Source: a virus. Taken from it: 64,000 bases of DNA. Numbering within the stretch: the stretch's first letter is position 1; each line of letters starts with the position of its first letter. The DNA lies in the IMG/VR virus record IMGVR_UViG_3300045988_103180. The stretch is one strand, 5' to 3'. A program made the position numbers and the translations under genes. The notes under the pieces are model-generated. The model had not been told where the DNA came from. It made no database searches and saw only the letters and a list, made by a program, of their open reading frames with translations. Below are positions 1,903-8,500 of the stretch, piece after piece.

Positions 1903-2370
1903 ACAAATCGTGATGGTGAAGGTTCAGGTTCGACTCCTGCCGCTGTCCGACAAGGACGGCGTAGTTTCAATTGGTGAGAATAGCACCTAGCGATTGTGTT
2001 ATATCCAATGCTTGGGGAGAGGTTATCGCTGCAAGGTAAATGTCTCCCGACTTCTATAATCTTTTGCAGGGATTATAGATTAAAGGGTTGGCGGTTTTCC
2101 CAGTTTGAAACCGTCCACGTGATTATATTATCTTGCTTGCAAGATTTTATATATGCCGGCTCTGTAGCCGTAGACAATGCGGGCCAGCGCATACTTGAAA
2201 AGAAGCGCCTAGGGGAAGAGGAATCTGGTATATTTTGGTAGTTTTCAAACCTCTGCAGATGTGAAAACTACTACTTTAATTGCGGGTGGGAGGTCAGTAT
2301 CTCACGGAGTCTCATAAGCTCTGTTAAGTTTCGGCAGCAGAAACACCTCGCGACCAATTTTTGTTATAAA
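1903..2370 (+). ncRNA. ORF-free structured transcript starting with a circularly permuted, loop-capped tRNA-like module (1906..1995)
   Basis: Begins just after promoter 1867..1895. Order is T arm, acceptor hairpin with GACAA loop, D arm. Followed by a series of 7-11 bp hairpins up to the next promoter. Only ORF present (1996..2241) lacks an SD. Confidence 0.6.
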
Positions 2371-2377
2371 AAATTAT

Positions 2378-2407
2378 TTGACAAATAGTTGAATAATTTG
2401 ATATAAT
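2378..2407 (+). promoter_or_regulatory. early-class promoter
   Basis: TTGACA-18-TATAATata. Confidence 0.65.
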
Positions 2408-2569
2408 ATATCTAGAAGGAAAGGGAAAAAGGATAGTCAACAGTACCGTCAACAAACCAGTGACCCTGCGGCTTATTGCCAACACCCAGAAGTGTAATGC
2501 TTAGTACGCTGTTAGGTTTGACCATTTGTTTTCTTCTAGTGTAGTAAACCAAGAGAAAGGTAAGAAAGT

Positions 2570-2710
2570 ATGGCACAGTCAATCGAGACGATGGAACAGC
2601 GTTATCAGATGCTACTTAACCGCAAAGGTAAGAACTCAGAAAATGTAGGCATCATGCGCAAGCTACGCCGCAAGATTAACAAGGCAAAGCAGGGTGTCAT
2701 TCTTTCCTAA
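2570..2710 (+). CDS. small basic protein (46 aa)
   Basis: Hand-translated MAQSIETMEQ...; preceded by the conserved leader aaccaagagaaagg; below ORF-track cutoff. Confidence 0.5.
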   Translation: MAQSIETMEQRYQMLLNRKGKNSENVGIMRKLRRKINKAKQGVILS

Positions 2711-2725
2711 TTAAGTTTATTTATT

Positions 2726-2821
2726 ATGCGTGATGAGGGTTCAGTTACTTCGTGAAGATTTTATGGGATATTTTAAATGCGGTACGCTGCATTTGTTAGT
2801 CTGACCCCAATTTTTCCGCAT
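2726..2821 (+). ncRNA. R-family structured RNA element, copy R0
   Basis: P1 ATGCG/CGCAT, TGATGAG, P2 GGGTTCAG/CTGACCC, loop starts TTACTTC, 3' tract ATTTTTC. Confidence 0.5.
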
Positions 2822-2829
2822 ATTTTTTC

Positions 2830-2862
2830 TTGACTTCTGGTCTATGTATATTATGATATAAT
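2830..2862 (+). promoter_or_regulatory. early-class promoter (irregular spacing)
   Basis: tttttcTTGACT ... TATAATata; -35/-10 spacing looks too long, so the true -35 is uncertain. Confidence 0.45.
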
Positions 2863-2893
2863 ATACATAGACCAAGAGAGAAAGAGGTTTGTT

Positions 2894-3049
2894 ATGAAGC
2901 AGTTCGTCATTTGTCGTGAAAAGACCTGCGGTATCTATTCAATTCGTGTCAACACTGATTGTTCTACTGTTCGTTTTGAGATAATCAAAGATTTCGACAC
3001 GTTTGAAGATGCAGACAACTACCTTCATAATATTCTTCTATATAAGTAA
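2894..3049 (+). CDS. small protein (51 aa)
   Basis: Hand-translated MKQFVICREK...; leader accaagagagaaagagg plus promoter 2830..2862. Confidence 0.5.
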   Translation: MKQFVICREKTCGIYSIRVNTDCSTVRFEIIKDFDTFEDADNYLHNILLYK

Positions 3050-3059
3050 TTCATTCTAT

Positions 3060-3128
3060 TGGAGTGTAATTCAGTTGGTAGAATGTTGTTAACTCAACGT
3101 GTCGCAGGTTCGAGTCCTGTCACTTCAA
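3060..3128 (+). tRNA. tRNA-like gene with non-canonical anticodon arm (identity undetermined)
   Basis: Normal acceptor, D (ATTC..GAAT) and T (GCAGG-TTCGAGT-CCTGT) arms, but anticodon arm is GTTG-TTAACT-CAAC (4 bp, 6-nt loop); 69 nt. Confidence 0.5.
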
Positions 3129-3157
3129 TAGAACAAAACGTGGCTTATCTACCCTGC

Positions 3158-3229
3158 TGGAGTGTAGCTCAATGGTAGAGCCTGCGGCTGTTAACCGCAT
3201 TGTTGTAGGTTCGAGTCCTACCATTCCAG
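3158..3229 (+). tRNA. tRNA-Asn (GUU)
   Basis: TGGAGTG/CATTCCA, D GCTC..GAGC, TGCGG-CTGTTAA-CCGCA, GTAGG-TTCGAGT-CCTAC. Confidence 0.85.
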
Positions 3230-3280
3230 CAGAGTAGATAGCTACTCAATTTATCCAAAAGTAGAAAAGGAGCTTTGTAA

Positions 3281-3727
3281 ATGTCGTATCCTTATAAGGA
3301 TGAAGTATTGGCAACTAAATATGCTTATATTCCCGATGATGCGGCCAATGCTCCCGCTCGCAAAAAGAAAAAGACAGTGAAGAAAGCCAATCATAAGCAC
3401 GCTTACGATAAGAGTATTGTTATCAATTACTTTGATAAGTACGCTGGCACATGGACTTATGCCTATAGGAATGTTTGTACTATTTGCGGTCGTATCGGTG
3501 ATTTTGTTGATAATGAGGGAATTATCAAAAAGACTTTCCCGCATGTCAAGCCTAGCTGGTTTGGTTTTGCTGTTTCTTTTGGATATAACGATGAATTTGC
3601 TGAATTTACCGAGTGGTCAAAGACTTGGTATCCTCTGATTATTTGGAAAGACTATCAGCCTTTGGATGACAAGTTTATTCCAGACGAGTTTTTTGATATG
3701 CTTGGGATTCAGAAACAAACCAATTAA
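3281..3727 (+). CDS. hypothetical protein
   Basis: 148-aa ORF; AAAAGGAG SD; sits between two tRNA pairs. Confidence 0.7.
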   Translation: MSYPYKDEVLATKYAYIPDDAANAPARKKKKTVKKANHKHAYDKSIVINYFDKYAGTWTYAYRNVCTICGRIGDFVDNEGIIKKTFPHVKPSWFGFAVSFGYNDEFAEFTEWSKTWYPLIIWKDYQPLDDKFIPDEFFDMLGIQKQTN

Positions 3728-3731
3728 AGAT

Positions 3732-3825
3732 GCGCCGGCACTCCGATTGGCCTTGAGAGCGGGGACTCAAAATCCTTTGGCGGTAACCATTCCGCATGTC
3801 GGTCCGAATCCGACCCGGCGTACCA
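3732..3825 (+). tRNA. tRNA-Leu (CAA), type II, CCA encoded
   Basis: GCGCCGG/CCGGCGT, anticodon loop CTCAAAA, long variable arm GCGG..CCGC, GTCGG-TCCGAAT-CCGAC, ACCA. Confidence 0.8.
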
Positions 3826-3827
3826 TT

Positions 3828-3912
3828 GCCGCAGTATTCCTTTAAAGACGAGGGGAAGACTGTAAATCTTCTGTCTATGACTGGCTAGGAGCGTTACCTA
3901 GATGCGGCACCA
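3828..3912 (+). tRNA. tRNA-Tyr (GUA)-like, type II, CCA encoded, atypical T-loop
   Basis: GAAGA-CTGTAAA-TCTTC anticodon arm, 13-nt variable arm; T arm CTAGG-AGCGTTA-CCTAG lacks TTC; 7:66 mismatch. Confidence 0.6.
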
Positions 3913-3923
3913 ATGTTTATTAA

Positions 3924-3993
3924 ATGCGTGATTAAGATTCAGTTACTTCGTATGGGCTTATGTATTGTAACACTGAATCTAACTTTTCCGCAT
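3924..3993 (+). ncRNA. R-family element, copy R1
   Basis: P1 ATGCG/CGCAT, TGATTA, P2 AGATTCAGT/ACTGAATCT, TACTTCG loop start, CTTTTC. Confidence 0.5.
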
Positions 3994-4009
3994 TTATTTG
4001 TTTACCATA

Positions 4010-4113
4010 ATGCGTGATAATAAATCAGTTACTTCATTCTGGAAAAATGCGCTTGCAGGTTCGACTCCTGCTCTGTATCGGTATACATTTTACTGATTTA
4101 GCCTTTTCCGCAT
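4010..4113 (+). ncRNA. R-family element, copy R2 (carries an inserted T-arm GCAGG-TTCGACT-CCTGC)
   Basis: P1 ATGCG/CGCAT, TGATAAT, P2 AAATCAGT/ACTGATTT, TACTTCA, CCTTTTC. Confidence 0.5.
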
Positions 4114-4130
4114 TTACTTTATTAAAGTAG

Positions 4131-4212
4131 GCGATACGTGATAACGTTTCAGATACTTCAAATCTCCATTCTGAGCTGATTACTCAAACTGAAACACCTA
4201 TTTCCGTATCGC
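4131..4212 (+). ncRNA. R-family element, copy R3
   Basis: P1 GCGATACG/CGTATCGC, TGATAAC, P2 GTTTCAG/CTGAAAC, ATACTTCA, CTATTTC. Confidence 0.45.
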
Positions 4213-4223
4213 TTTCTCTTGTG

Positions 4224-4333
4224 CGGCAAGTGATTAGTAAAGAGTTACTTCGTTATATGATATGTTTAAATAAGAGCAACTTTCACTAGAAAGAGGCAAC
4301 CCCACCTATACTCTTTACACTTTTTCCTTACCG
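4224..4333 (+). ncRNA. R-family element, copy R4
   Basis: P1 CGGCAAG/CTTACCG (1 mismatch), TGATTAG, P2 TAAAGAGT/ACTCTTTA, TACTTCG, CTTTTTC. Confidence 0.4.
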
Positions 4334-4387
4334 TTATTTGTAAACCCCTTTCTCGCCTATATAGTGTGCGAGCTATATAGACACAAA

Positions 4388-4464
4388 TGTGCGTGATTAT
4401 TATTCAGTTACTTCATATAGCAATTTTTATGACCATCCAACACTGAATAAACTTTTTCCGCACA
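4388..4464 (+). ncRNA. R-family element, copy R5
   Basis: P1 TGTGCG/CGCACA, TGATTAT, P2 TATTCAGT/ACTGAATA, TACTTCA, CTTTTTC. Confidence 0.5.
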
Positions 4465-4477
4465 CATTGATATTTTA

Positions 4478-4505
4478 TAGGGACTCTTTTGAGTCCCTAT
4501 TTTTT
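4478..4505 (+). terminator. rho-independent terminator
   Basis: TAGGGACTC-TTTT-GAGTCCCTA + T-run. Confidence 0.75.
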
Positions 4506-4506
4506 G

Positions 4507-4536
4507 TTGACTATTGGCTATATATTATGCTATAAT
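4507..4536 (+). promoter_or_regulatory. early-class promoter
   Basis: TTGACT-18-TATAATata. Confidence 0.65.
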
Positions 4537-4563
4537 ATATTTAAGAAATCGAAAGGAGATTCA

Positions 4564-5100
4564 ATGAGCATCTTTGTAGTCAGTGACACTCATTTTTCGC
4601 ATCAGAATATTATCAATTATTGTGAGAAGTCGCGTGCTTTTAATACGGTTGATGACATGAACGAAGACATCATCGAAAGGTGGAATTCCGTTGTATCTCC
4701 TGATGATACTATCTATCATCTTGGTGATTGCTTCATGGGACCGCTTGAGACTGTAGCTAAATATGGTTCTCATCTCAATGGAAAGGTTCATGTGATTCCC
4801 GGCAATCATGATACCAAGAAACGCATTGCTGAAATGGAAAAGCTCGGCTGGATTATTGAAAACAAGGTATCTTGTCTTGATTACAATGATGTCAGTTTCA
4901 TTATGATTCACGAGCGCCCCGAGGAAATGCGTGGAGACAGCGCCAATGTCATTCTATACGGTCATGTTCATGATGCGGCTCCCAAGGGCCTTGTTGATTG
5001 GACATATCATGTAGGTGTTGACACTAATAATCTTACTCCTGTTAATATTCATGACATTTGGCTCGATGTCCAGCAGAAGAAGATTGAGCTTGGAGAGTAA
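4564..5100 (+). CDS. calcineurin-like metallophosphoesterase
   Basis: Motifs SDTHF (DxH), LGDCF (GD), PGNHD (GNHD), YGHVH (GHxH); ORF trimmed to ATG 4564 behind AAAGGAG. Confidence 0.85.
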   Translation: MSIFVVSDTHFSHQNIINYCEKSRAFNTVDDMNEDIIERWNSVVSPDDTIYHLGDCFMGPLETVAKYGSHLNGKVHVIPGNHDTKKRIAEMEKLGWIIENKVSCLDYNDVSFIMIHERPEEMRGDSANVILYGHVHDAAPKGLVDWTYHVGVDTNNLTPVNIHDIWLDVQQKKIELGE

Positions 5101-5955: not shown

Positions 5956-6855
5956 ATGAAAGTAGCGGTTATGAATTTTAAGACTTTTGAAGGAAATTCT
6001 GGCGATATATGGAAGTATGTCTTTACGAAAGAAGATATGGTCGCCGAAGCGGTTCTATATAAATATAATAGTTACTACGATAGAACTGTAATTTGTTGCA
6101 GCGTTATGAGTGGTTGTCCTGTTGGATGTCTCTTTTGCGGCACTGGTTCTAAATTTGTTAGGAATCTTACTGCTGATGAAATTGTAGATCAGATTGTAAC
6201 CGTCTTAACTAATAAAGGTTTAATTAATGACATTAATGAAAAGTGTAAAAAATTACAGTTTATGTTTATGAGCATGGGTGAGCCTATGTTAAATTGGGTA
6301 GAAGTTGAAAAAGCAATTGTCAATCTTCATAAAAAGTTTAGTAATGCTCAGTTACTACTTTCGACTATTGGCTGTGATAATGATGAAACTTTTGCAAAGA
6401 TGATTGCTCTATCTAAGAAGATAGATAAAATTGGTTTGCAATTTTCTATTCATAAGTCCAATGACGCAGAGCGGAATGTGTTAATTCCATTCAAGAAGAA
6501 AATGAATCTTCAAAAGATTAGGGATGTTGGAACTGTTTGGTGGAAAGAAACCGGTAGGCATCCATTCTTAAACTACTGCATTGATGGAACGAATAATGAA
6601 GATAAGAACTTTAAAGAACTTACAGACCTGTTTTCTCCTGTAATCTTTAATTTTACTTTTAGTGTAGTTTGCGCATCTGATGAAACTATGAAAGATGCTG
6701 CGTTTAGAAACTTAGATGTTATTAAGAAGTTTCAGGATAAGTTCTTAGAAAAGGGTTATAATGTAAGGACATTTGACCCAGCTGGTCAAGATGATATTGG
6801 TGGTGGGTGCGGCCAGCTTTGGTATGTTCAGAAGTGGCTAAAGTCTCACCAATAG
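5956..6855 (+). CDS. radical SAM RNA methyltransferase, RlmN/Cfr family (N-terminally short)
   Basis: CCSVMSGCPVGCLFC (CX3CX2C plus a Cys 7 residues upstream as in RlmN), MSMGEPMLN, LSTIG, C-terminal DDIGGGCGQL as in RlmN ..DIxAACGQL. Confidence 0.85.
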   Translation: MKVAVMNFKTFEGNSGDIWKYVFTKEDMVAEAVLYKYNSYYDRTVICCSVMSGCPVGCLFCGTGSKFVRNLTADEIVDQIVTVLTNKGLINDINEKCKKLQFMFMSMGEPMLNWVEVEKAIVNLHKKFSNAQLLLSTIGCDNDETFAKMIALSKKIDKIGLQFSIHKSNDAERNVLIPFKKKMNLQKIRDVGTVWWKETGRHPFLNYCIDGTNNEDKNFKELTDLFSPVIFNFTFSVVCASDETMKDAAFRNLDVIKKFQDKFLEKGYNVRTFDPAGQDDIGGGCGQLWYVQKWLKSHQ

Positions 6856-6963: not shown

Positions 6964-6993
6964 TTGACAATTGCATATTGAATATGATATAAT
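6964..6993 (+). promoter_or_regulatory. early-class promoter (drives permuted tRNA-like RNA 2, tRNA array and radical SAM gene)
   Basis: tttttcTTGACA-18-TATAATata. Confidence 0.7.
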
Positions 6994-6998
6994 ATAGT

Positions 6999-7213
6999 TA
7001 TCAAGTCGAGCATAGAGCAGATGTGGGTTCGACTCCCATCCTTGCCCGACAAGGGCGAGGTAGTTTAATTGGTTAAATACGGTTCTTACGTTCGACTAGA
7101 TATATAGAAAATATAGGAAATAGCTTAACCCTATATTTTCAACTTCTAAAGCCTAGCTAGCTTTAGATTAAAAGGTTCGCAACTATCCTTAAAATGGTTG
7201 CCACTAGTGACGG
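6999..7213 (+). ncRNA. second circularly permuted tRNA-like module (6999..7102) plus two long hairpins, leading the tRNA array
   Basis: Same architecture and same GACAA cap as 1906..1995; closing stem TATC-A-AGTCGA / TCGACT-A-GATA; hairpins 7107..7139 and 7146..7168. Confidence 0.6.
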
Positions 7214-7214
7214 T

Positions 7215-7286
7215 GTGTTAGTAGTTTAACTGGCAGAATTGCAAGGTGACGTTCTTGAGATTGGAGTTCGAATCTCCACTAGCGCA
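7215..7286 (+). tRNA. tRNA-like gene with non-canonical anticodon arm (identity undetermined)
   Basis: GTGTTAG/CTAGCGC, T arm TGGAG-TTCGAAT-CTCCA, but anticodon arm CAAG(G)-TGACGT-(T)CTTG gives a 6- or 8-nt loop. Confidence 0.5.
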
Positions 7287-7293
7287 CGAAAAT

Positions 7294-7723: not shown

Positions 7724-8500
7724 ATGGATGTAATTATGTGTAATTATATTGACCACATTGATGCTGTTATTACTCATTATTGTAATTTTAACTGTCCTTT
7801 TTGTATTGATAAATTTAAAACAAATATTAAGAATCCTCAGAATGAATTTAATAAAGAATATTTTAATGATTTTTTAAATTCTTTAAATAAAAAAGAAAGT
7901 TCTGGCGATATTAAGATTAATTCTAATCGTGAGGTTCTATTTTTGGGTGGTGAACCAACAACTGTTGGTTTTAATTTACTGAAGGATTATGCTAATATTG
8001 TTAGTCGTAATGGTTTTCATCCAATTATATCAACTAATGGTGTTGATAAAAACACAATTAAAAAGATTCTTCCATATTTCGATTGGGTACAGGTAACGGC
8101 TCATAGCAAGAAAGAGATTGATGAATGGCGTACGTATAATACGTATGGGAATATCAATCTTAAAATTGCTGGAGATAGTCATTTTACGTATGATAAGTTA
8201 AATTATTTAATTGATAATTGTAAAGATTTTACTCGTCGTAGCGTATCCATGTATTTTACAAAAGATTTTGTTGAATTATGTAAAGATAAAGAAATTTGGA
8301 ATCTTTTAGATTCTTTAAATAATTGGAAAACCAATGGAAGTTACGAGTATGCTTTTTATAAAGATGTTCGTATTAAGAAATGTATACATGGATTAACAAA
8401 TATTATTGATGAACCCACTGTCCCAAAGATTTATGATAAGAAATATAATAAAACATGGGATAATGAAGAATTAGATGATTATTTAAATCTATTTATATAG
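7724..8500 (+). CDS. radical SAM domain protein, substrate unknown
   Basis: HYCNFNCPFC (CX3CX2C) and LFLGGEPT motifs; very AT-rich; directly follows the tRNA array; start 7724 or 7736. Confidence 0.75.
   Translation: MDVIMCNYIDHIDAVITHYCNFNCPFCIDKFKTNIKNPQNEFNKEYFNDFLNSLNKKESSGDIKINSNREVLFLGGEPTTVGFNLLKDYANIVSRNGFHPIISTNGVDKNTIKKILPYFDWVQVTAHSKKEIDEWRTYNTYGNINLKIAGDSHFTYDKLNYLIDNCKDFTRRSVSMYFTKDFVELCKDKEIWNLLDSLNNWKTNGSYEYAFYKDVRIKKCIHGLTNIIDEPTVPKIYDKKYNKTWDNEELDDYLNLFI

Follow-up and report, generated by a model that had tools for sequence, protein, structure and literature searches.

Tandem structured RNAs in a gut phage tRNA operon as probable Y RNA-like partners of phage TROVE/Ro60 proteins

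What are the six short structured elements that lie among the tRNA genes of a human-gut phage? The question arises from a 64,000-nucleotide (nt) stretch of the IMG/VR virus record IMGVR_UViG_3300045988_103180, hereafter the window, in which the region 2726-4464 holds six copies (R1 to R6) of one scaffold and the surrounding region 2400-4600 reads as a plus-strand noncoding RNA island. A first, sequence-only reading had described the elements as a structured RNA family that matched nothing known, with the small stable RNAs of phage T4 as a possible analogy. On the evidence below, we put the probability at about three in four that the six elements are genes for Y RNA-like (Yrl) RNAs, partners of the TROVE/Ro60 protein encoded by the clade to which this phage belongs. 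The earlier description thus stands in part: the structured RNA family is supported, while its orphan status is not, given that the same scaffold occurs upstream of TROVE/Ro60 genes elsewhere, that the clade encodes a Ro60 protein, and that the layout is that of Y RNAs.

The pattern TGATNAN{6,12}TACTTC occurs six times in the 64 kb, always on the plus strand, with starts at 2731, 3929, 4015, 4139, 4231, and 4394. The chance expectation is 0.43, and 0 of 100 shuffles reached six. Two covariance models were built, model R1 from alignment A1 (loop-trimmed copies from the window and its close relatives, the clade) and model R2 from alignment A3 (27 sequences from diverse lineages). Each returned six matches in the window and none elsewhere within it, spanning 2723-2824, 3921-3996, 4007-4116, 4131-4212, 4223-4334, and 4386-4466, in agreement within 3 nt with the coordinates first proposed. 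At gathering thresholds and at E ≤ 10, Rfam gave no match on the six copies; its matches in the region were tRNAs only. Running cmsearch with filters off performed more poorly than the default on long module inserts and added nothing. During the collection of relatives, the first loose pattern returned mostly chance matches; L118, L128, and L139 (20.9 bits) fall within coding sequence and were dropped, and model R2 did not confirm L163 (23.6 bits).

Folding formed the two helices P1 and P2 in all six copies, with minimum free energy z-scores from -2.0 to -5.2. In order, the scaffold consists of P1, a bulged U, a G-C and an A-U pair, an internal loop (UGAYNR / ..UUYC), P2, the junction UUACUUC, and a variable module. 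The helices had been noted to differ in sequence between copies while remaining complementary, and this holds in related phages: in the clade alignment (38 sequences), 91% of the P1/P2 cells carry standard pairs, a share that falls to 19-44% on sliding the 3' partners by 1-3 columns, and double-sided changes occur in 13 of 16 pairs. The diverse alignment (27 sequences) gives 94% paired cells versus 36-48% when slid and a covariation score of 0.94 versus no more than 0.18; covariation extends to all eight P2 pairs and to five of the six in P1. Orthologous changes in P1 run through G-C, G-U, and A-U. At the base of the internal loop, the last P1 pair (G8-C57) is invariant, U9 is bulged, and G10-C56 and A11-U55 follow, the former with two G-U cells and the latter with two G-C compensations.

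The single strands first read as TGATnAn, TACTTC(R), and a pyrimidine-only 3' strand reappear in these alignments as a 5' G-UGAYNR strand (27/27 aligned sequences, following P1), (W)UACUUC(R) directly after P2, and a 3' ..UUYC-C strand. Immediately after P2, nearly all copies read UUAC (AUAC in copy R4), with U24 and C26 invariant and A25 nearly so, and the region distal to UUACUUC(R) is the variable module. The bulged-helix geometry resembles the published bulged helix recognized by Ro60, although the sequence differs; the helix is a candidate binding platform. An earlier suggestion that the CTTTTTC tract pairs with purine-rich leaders found no support; the strand belongs to the conserved bulged helix and internal loop. 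Departures from the consensus are few: P2 of copy R1 contains one mismatch or bulge, P1 of copy R5 has a C.A mismatch in this genome, and the 3' loop strand of copy R4 reads CCUAUUUC.

The connection to Ro60 came from distant matches to the model, which in L171/L186 and L177/L215 immediately precede a 490-aa gene. The product is a TROVE/Ro60 protein (Pfam PF05731, E = 8e-16). An alignment search for TROVE retrieved 45 viral loci. Outside the clade of the window, a scaffold copy precedes TROVE by 10-1100 nt, in the same orientation, at no fewer than 19 of 24 loci (L186, L187, L188, L189, L207, L209, L211, L215, L220, L221, L222, L224-L228, L230, L231, and L250), where upstream copies were found by model, by eye, and by a scan with strict rules, which gave 23 matches in the forward direction, 0 in reverse, and 0 in shuffled sequence, each match being upstream of TROVE. 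Approached from the RNA side, pattern scans of IMG/VR that were blind to proteins placed model-confirmed copies on 27 contigs, of which 24 carry TROVE and the remaining three end short of its expected position. Linked cases include a Bacilli metagenome-assembled genome (MAG) fragment with five tandem copies upstream of TROVE, a 634-kb megaphage, and phage csAssE-Sib (L250), in which the gene downstream of the scaffold is annotated as "Ro sixty-related protein." The TROVE proteins of scaffold-bearing lineages share 22-55% identity, falling to 22-28%, and the best TROVE match among INPHARED phages is 28.7% identical. As a separate observation, a phage TROVE gene and its Y RNA-like copies in L221 are preceded, at a distance of about 2 kb, by a raiA RNA (Rfam RF03072, 115.8 bits) at positions 646-885.

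Phages of the clade to which the window belongs have genomes of about 140 kb and come from the human gut. TROVE is present in 22/22 clade contigs that reach far enough (Pfam E = 6e-14), the three clade contigs that lack it stop short of where it would lie, and the protein matches the Ro60 structures of Thermus phage phiLo (9L5Y and 9KOP) with E = 4.5e-23. A second RNA ligase lies 2 kb from it. To the left of the window, relatives encode an RNA ligase and then TROVE on one strand, followed on the divergent strand by a 126-aa gene, an AAA_33 kinase, Band_7, a SpoU methylase, PhoH, and an Rnl1-like ligase, and then the window itself. From this gene order, the TROVE start is expected ~13 kb left of window position 1; the contig of the window ends ~10 kb to the left, at the divergent intergenic region. 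In the clade, no scaffold copy was found within 10 kb of TROVE.

The six copies, all on the plus strand, scored between 47.9 and 71.6 bits. Copy R1 (2726..2821; 60.6 and 59.3 bits with models R1 and R2, the order used hereafter) carries the fold at the 3' end of an operon that starts at promoter 2378-2407, after a 46-aa open reading frame (ORF; 2570-2710); a U run comes next, and R1 orthologues have the P2 helix GAAUUCAG/CUGAAUUC. The other five are tandem. Copy R2 (3924..3993; 68.7 and 61.9 bits) combines P1 AUGCG/CGCAU and P2 AGAUUCAG/CUGAAUCU with a short module. Copy R3 (4010..4113; 63.8 and 57.9 bits) contains the full T arm that had been recognized in one member of the family: its module comprises the T-arm hairpin GCAGG UUCGACU CCUGC, a 4-5-bp hairpin with a CGGU loop, and a small UUC/GAA hairpin, and an A-U pair of the T stem is swapped to U-A in 5/10 orthologues, a compensatory change in the RNAalifold consensus. 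Copy R4 (4131..4212; 54.7 and 47.9 bits) has P1 GCGAUACG/CGUAUCGC, P2 CGUUUCAG/CUGAAAC, the AUACUUC junction, and the z-score of -5.2. Copy R5 (4224..4333; 51.1 and 52.6 bits) has P1 GGCAAG/CUUACC and P2 GUAAAGAG/CUCUUUAC, topped by GAG/CUC instead of CAG/CUG, and its long module ends as a C/A-rich single strand. Copy R6 (4388..4464; 71.6 and 64.7 bits) has P1 UGUGCG/CGCACA and P2 UUAUUCAG/CUGAAUAA, and its module is replaced in relatives.

Comparison with relatives places the variation in the modules. The window sequence is 100% identical to a human-gut ENA contig, ERZ919620 k127_101674, and the IMG/VR pattern scans recovered ~25 contigs of 80-147 kb at 85-96% identity, each with 2-6 copies in the same place. 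INPHARED phages contained no DNA relative of the region, tRNA-Asn being the sole match. Across clade genomes, scaffolds are kept and modules are swapped wholesale; each array includes a single copy with a T arm. The AGAUUCAG scaffold, for example, carries four unrelated modules and is found at both the R2 and R6 positions, and hybrids between copies occur in L042 (R2/R6), L129 (R2/R4), and L147. In L187, L207, L224, and L250, full T/AS/D modules sit within the same scaffold, and Rfam YrlA scores below its gathering threshold of 69 on two of them (L207, 37.7 bits; L224, 28.8 bits). Elsewhere the modules are complete tRNA-like cloverleaves, namely tRNA-Asn and tRNA-Lys in L134 (8449-8013, minus strand) and annotated tRNA-Tyr and tRNA-Lys in csAssE-Sib (L250, 3637-3915); the one paired, the L250 tRNA-Lys cloverleaf, has a weak acceptor stem (4/7 pairs). 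The "tRNA genes" beside Ro60 in these two sequences may serve as modules of Y RNAs and not in decoding. Because a scan of genome contigs yielded only two MAG fragments, one Bacilli and one Clostridium, host assignment is weak.

How do these elements compare with known Y RNAs? Bacterial Y RNAs are 80-130 nt long with a long stem that holds the Ro60 site, a GNCGAAN0-1G motif, and a conserved YUAY at the start of the module; a genome has several, encoded on the rsr strand no more than a few kb from that gene, and one of these carries a tRNA-like T/AS/D domain (Chen et al. 2014, PMC4201824). The window copies, at 70-110 nt, share with YrlA/YrlB (RF02553) a stem formed by the ends and the succession of elements, since the Rfam consensus also runs from P1 through an asymmetric internal loop to P2, CUA, and the module. 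YUAY, here UUAC, opens the module; in relatives, the genes lie upstream of Ro60 on the same strand; and there are several paralogues per genome, one tRNA-like, with the arms of relatives in the YrlA order T, AS, D. A second precedent is Yrl1/Yrl2 of phage phiLo (PMC12135203; PDB 9L5Y), where a phage Ro60 homologous to the clade protein has Y RNA-like genes upstream of it and the Yrl RNAs are proposed to tether host PNPase. The phiLo RNAs differ in that they were picked by a CGAA motif, number only two, and belong to another host and phage lineage. Metazoan Y RNAs (RF00019) offer a more general likeness through paired ends, a bulged helix that metazoan Ro60 binds, and a variable loop that recruits factors in metazoans. 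The neighborhood of the window also resembles the bacterial rsr-yrlBA-rtcBA operon, an RNA repair context. T4 species 1 and 2, the basis of the earlier analogy, are small stable RNAs co-transcribed with phage tRNAs. To our knowledge, they have no Ro60 partner and no motif in common with the window copies. Given the scaffold upstream of TROVE, the Ro60 of the clade, and the Y RNA layout, the closest known kind is bacterial/phage YrlA/YrlB and not the T4 stable RNAs.

Several observations weigh against assigning the copies to Ro60. Four TROVE loci (L212-L214 and L217) have no copy within 3 kb. In the clade, TROVE is not adjacent to the array, lying 15.5-19 kb away on the opposite strand (contig ends bridged where needed). 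The 64-kb window contains no TROVE gene; because the contig ends before the expected site, the case for Ro60 in this genome depends on synteny with no fewer than 22 relatives. Neither of the motifs regarded as Ro60 contacts is present: GNCGAAN0-1G of bacterial Y RNAs gives way to a 5' G-UGAYNR and a 3' ..UUYC strand, and the animal motif GGUCCGA is missing as well. The window copies have no sequence similarity to metazoan Y RNAs, and neither Rfam YrlA nor Y_RNA matches any of them, even at E ≤ 10. Copies number up to six, of which five lack a tRNA-like module. Other differences from YrlA are the junction extended to UUACUUC, the tRNA mimicry of copy R3, which is limited to the T arm plus one extra hairpin, and, in the clade of the window, genes that lie within a tRNA operon, unlinked from Ro60. 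The missing GNCGAA and the absence of Rfam detection indicate a new Y RNA-like scaffold variant rather than a member of RF02553.

Could the RNAs instead work independently of Ro60 and merely share an RNA island with TROVE? As structured small RNAs, they would be regulators that act by pairing of their variable loops with transcripts of host or phage, or decoys for tRNA-targeting defense nucleases of the host, and parts of the data fit: the clade array lies 16 kb from TROVE among tRNA genes, modules are swapped between close relatives as for arms-race targets, several modules have C/A-rich single-stranded ends, and the scaffolds of L134 and csAssE-Sib enclose tRNA-Lys-, Asn-, and Tyr-like cloverleaves, which are classic targets of anticodon nucleases. 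Conservation, however, resides in the scaffold and not in the loops, and chance is hard to square with a scaffold immediately upstream of TROVE on the same strand when the TROVE proteins are only 22-55% identical. A decoy role is, moreover, compatible with a Ro60 ribonucleoprotein (RNP) and does not exclude it. We consider independence from Ro60 unlikely.

A second alternative is a role in cis and not as stable trans-acting RNAs: the copies would be either processing signals, attenuators, or terminators within the tRNA operon or an autoregulatory TROVE leader. Copies in L187, L188, and L207 do lie between the promoter and the TROVE start codon, a U run follows copy R1 at the end of its operon, and U-rich spacers follow the other copies. 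Five to six tandem copies with differing modules would not be expected of a leader or terminator, however, and those in the clade of the window are detached from TROVE. A canonical terminator already follows the array at 4477-4500, and a P1 of only 5-8 bp that closes a large multiloop would make a poor intrinsic terminator. Known Y RNAs, too, are transcribed together with rsr and then processed (PMC4201824). Cis action appears improbable. That the copies are DNA-level repeats without RNA function, such as miniature inverted-repeat elements (MITEs) or recombination sites, is harder still to credit: the recombinant hybrids of L042, L129, and L147 and a copy number of 2 to 6 would suit such repeats, but the paired arms vary between copies yet stay complementary, G-U intermediates included, the loop strands are asymmetric and strand-specific, and all copies are oriented with the surrounding transcription, whereas mobile elements would keep identical terminal repeats. 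The main argument against all three alternatives is the repeated adjacency of the scaffold to TROVE.

A number of known motifs were also set aside. K-turns and C/D boxes were rejected on reading the sequence, as the 3' strand has no GA and, being all pyrimidine, cannot form tandem sheared G.A pairs. The cores of hammerhead and other small ribozymes are absent, with no Rfam match; riboswitches and CRISPR or RNA anti-CRISPR repeats were judged from the sequence, with no relevant Rfam match at E ≤ 10. ToxI-type antitoxin repeats were excluded because the copies are not identical and there is no ToxN, and integron attC sites and MITEs because the arms covary.

If the copies are Y RNA-like genes, how might they be expressed? 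A consensus scan located a sigma-70-type promoter-like site (TTGACT-16-TATGAT) at 2830..2857 on the plus strand, which probably drives an ORF at 2894-3049, the tRNAs, an ORF at 3281-3727, and copies R2-R6. Upstream of these copies and on the same strand lie a tRNA-like sequence (3060-3128), tRNA-Asn (3158-3230), the 148-aa ORF at 3281-3727, tRNA-Leu (3732-3825), and a tRNA-Tyr-like sequence (3826-3912); the genes from 3060 to 3912 probably share one predicted transcript with the copies. The tRNA-Yrl operon closes with an intrinsic terminator (4477..4505, plus strand), in line with the original placement, formed by a 10-bp stem (4477-4500) followed by the T run TTTTTGTT. Two further details of the first description require adjustment. 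Mechanical ORFs of 32-48 aa do overlap the array, which had been called free of ORFs, although nothing supports them. The "tRNA-Tyr" that precedes the array was called by neither ARAGORN nor Rfam, although it is tRNA-like, with a GUA anticodon and an encoded CCA.

Expression is suggested by the promoters and terminator, together with analogous, highly transcribed regions of Listeria phage CKA15. In CKA15/P100, abundant unannotated RNAs lie upstream of an Rsr-like gene, and the likeness to the window extends to strong sigma-A-type promoters and noncoding regions beside the tRNA cluster and the Rsr-like gene (PMC12282133). P100 itself (L248, 38100-38500, minus strand) has, after a promoter, three tandem stem-closed repeats sharing (U/A)AACAGCAAUUACUA, directly upstream of gp165, a homologue of the Rsr-like CKA15_055 for which very abundant transcripts are reported. 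Their conserved ..CAGCAAUUACUA strand and architecture are unlike those of the window family, and model R2 found no match in P100; these repeats look like a different putative Y RNA type.

Like the tRNA-Tyr-like sequence, a tRNA-like gene at 2281-2356 (CAU) received no call from ARAGORN or Rfam. Both have an encoded CCA end, normal anticodon arms, and D loops without GG, and their T loops are non-canonical (AGCGUUA in 3826-3912 and GGCAGCA in 2281-2356); the CAU tRNA-like gene of relative L042 has a canonical T arm. The sequence at 3060-3128 scores 44 bits as an Rfam tRNA but is not called by ARAGORN, and it has a shortened anticodon arm with the 6-nt loop UUAACU; its anticodon stem is degenerate in relative L053. 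At 7215-7287, ARAGORN predicts a tRNA with a 4-base anticodon (gacg), a gene also present in relative L145, which could be a frameshift suppressor or an aberrant tRNA.

Two more elements of the plus strand are tentatively assigned as further candidates of the YrlA type. The first (1903..2000) lies just after promoter 1867-1895 and folds with closing stems AAAUCG-UGA-UGGUG ... CACC-UAG-CGAUU around a T arm that covaries among relatives, an AS-like hairpin, and a D-like arm; Rfam YrlA gave no match on it. Its paralogue (6996..7100), just after promoter 6964-6993, has the T arm UGGG UUCGACU CCCA, the hairpin CUUGCCC GACAA GGGCGAG, and a D-like arm. Both promoters are perfect (TTGACA-N17/18-TATAAT), both elements have a 7-bp hairpin and a permuted YrlA arm order, with a T arm that covaries among relatives and no match to Rfam YrlA in either, and the two may be the true YrlA equivalents of the phage. 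The noncoding segments 2000-2280 and 1660-1775, located between tRNA genes and strong promoters without ORF support or an Rfam match, may hold more structured RNAs. The basic 46-aa ORF that precedes copy R1 has as its leader a long-range hairpin at 2410-2560 (CUAGAAGGAAA ... UUUUCUUCUAG), with the perfect promoter 2378-2407 upstream.

The protein-coding surroundings are rich in RNA-related functions. A metallophosphoesterase and two radical-SAM proteins (4564-5100, 5956-6855, and 7724-8500) flank the RNA genes, and the left flank beyond the window encodes the Rnl1-like ligase, SpoU methylase, PhoH, and AAA_33/KTI12 kinases, a set that looks like an RNA repair and modification island. Taken with both RNA ligases of the neighborhood (one of them Rnl1-like), the tRNAs, and the non-canonical tRNA-like genes, this context suggests RNA repair or tRNA surveillance during infection.

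A mechanism for the proposed Y RNA-like genes can be modeled by analogy on Deinococcus radiodurans, Salmonella, and phage phiLo. Early in infection, host RNA polymerase would transcribe the loci from the strong sigma-A-type promoters into polycistronic precursors that include tRNAs, and tRNA-processing and other nucleases would release RNAs of 70-110 nt. Phage Ro60 would then bind the conserved platform, which runs from P1 and the bulged U through the G-C and A-U pairs and the internal loop (UGAYNR / ..UUYC) to P2 and the UUACUUC junction. The distal module, whether the T-arm mimic of copy R3 or the hairpins and single-stranded tails of the other copies, would set the action of the RNP, either by tethering Ro60 to an effector (PNPase or an RNA-repair or tRNA enzyme) or by gating the Ro60 cavity. 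A bolder version, which we regard as doubtful, would make the scaffold a general Ro60 docking cassette with interchangeable cargo, including the Lys, Tyr, and Asn cloverleaves that anticodon nucleases target. With the ligases, kinase, and phosphoesterase, the resulting RNPs would form an anti-defense machine for tRNA protection or repair, and recombination between phages would shuffle the modules in the manner of an arms race.

Y RNAs are difficult to recognize from sequence, and YrlA is the only bacterial family catalogued. If the Y RNA-like assignment is true, the family described here would provide a second searchable scaffold with clear invariant nucleotides, distributed over several human-gut phage lineages, and would reveal genomes that encode at least six Y RNAs and exchange the effector modules of these RNAs as cassettes. 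Such natural module variants would make the idea that the Y RNA module decides the action of Ro60 directly testable. The finding would also connect tRNA clusters and RNA-repair enzymes with phage Ro60. In lupus and Sjogren syndrome, Ro60 is an autoantigen, and Ro60 orthologues of commensals have been proposed as triggers; abundant Ro60 RNPs of gut phages may therefore be of medical interest.

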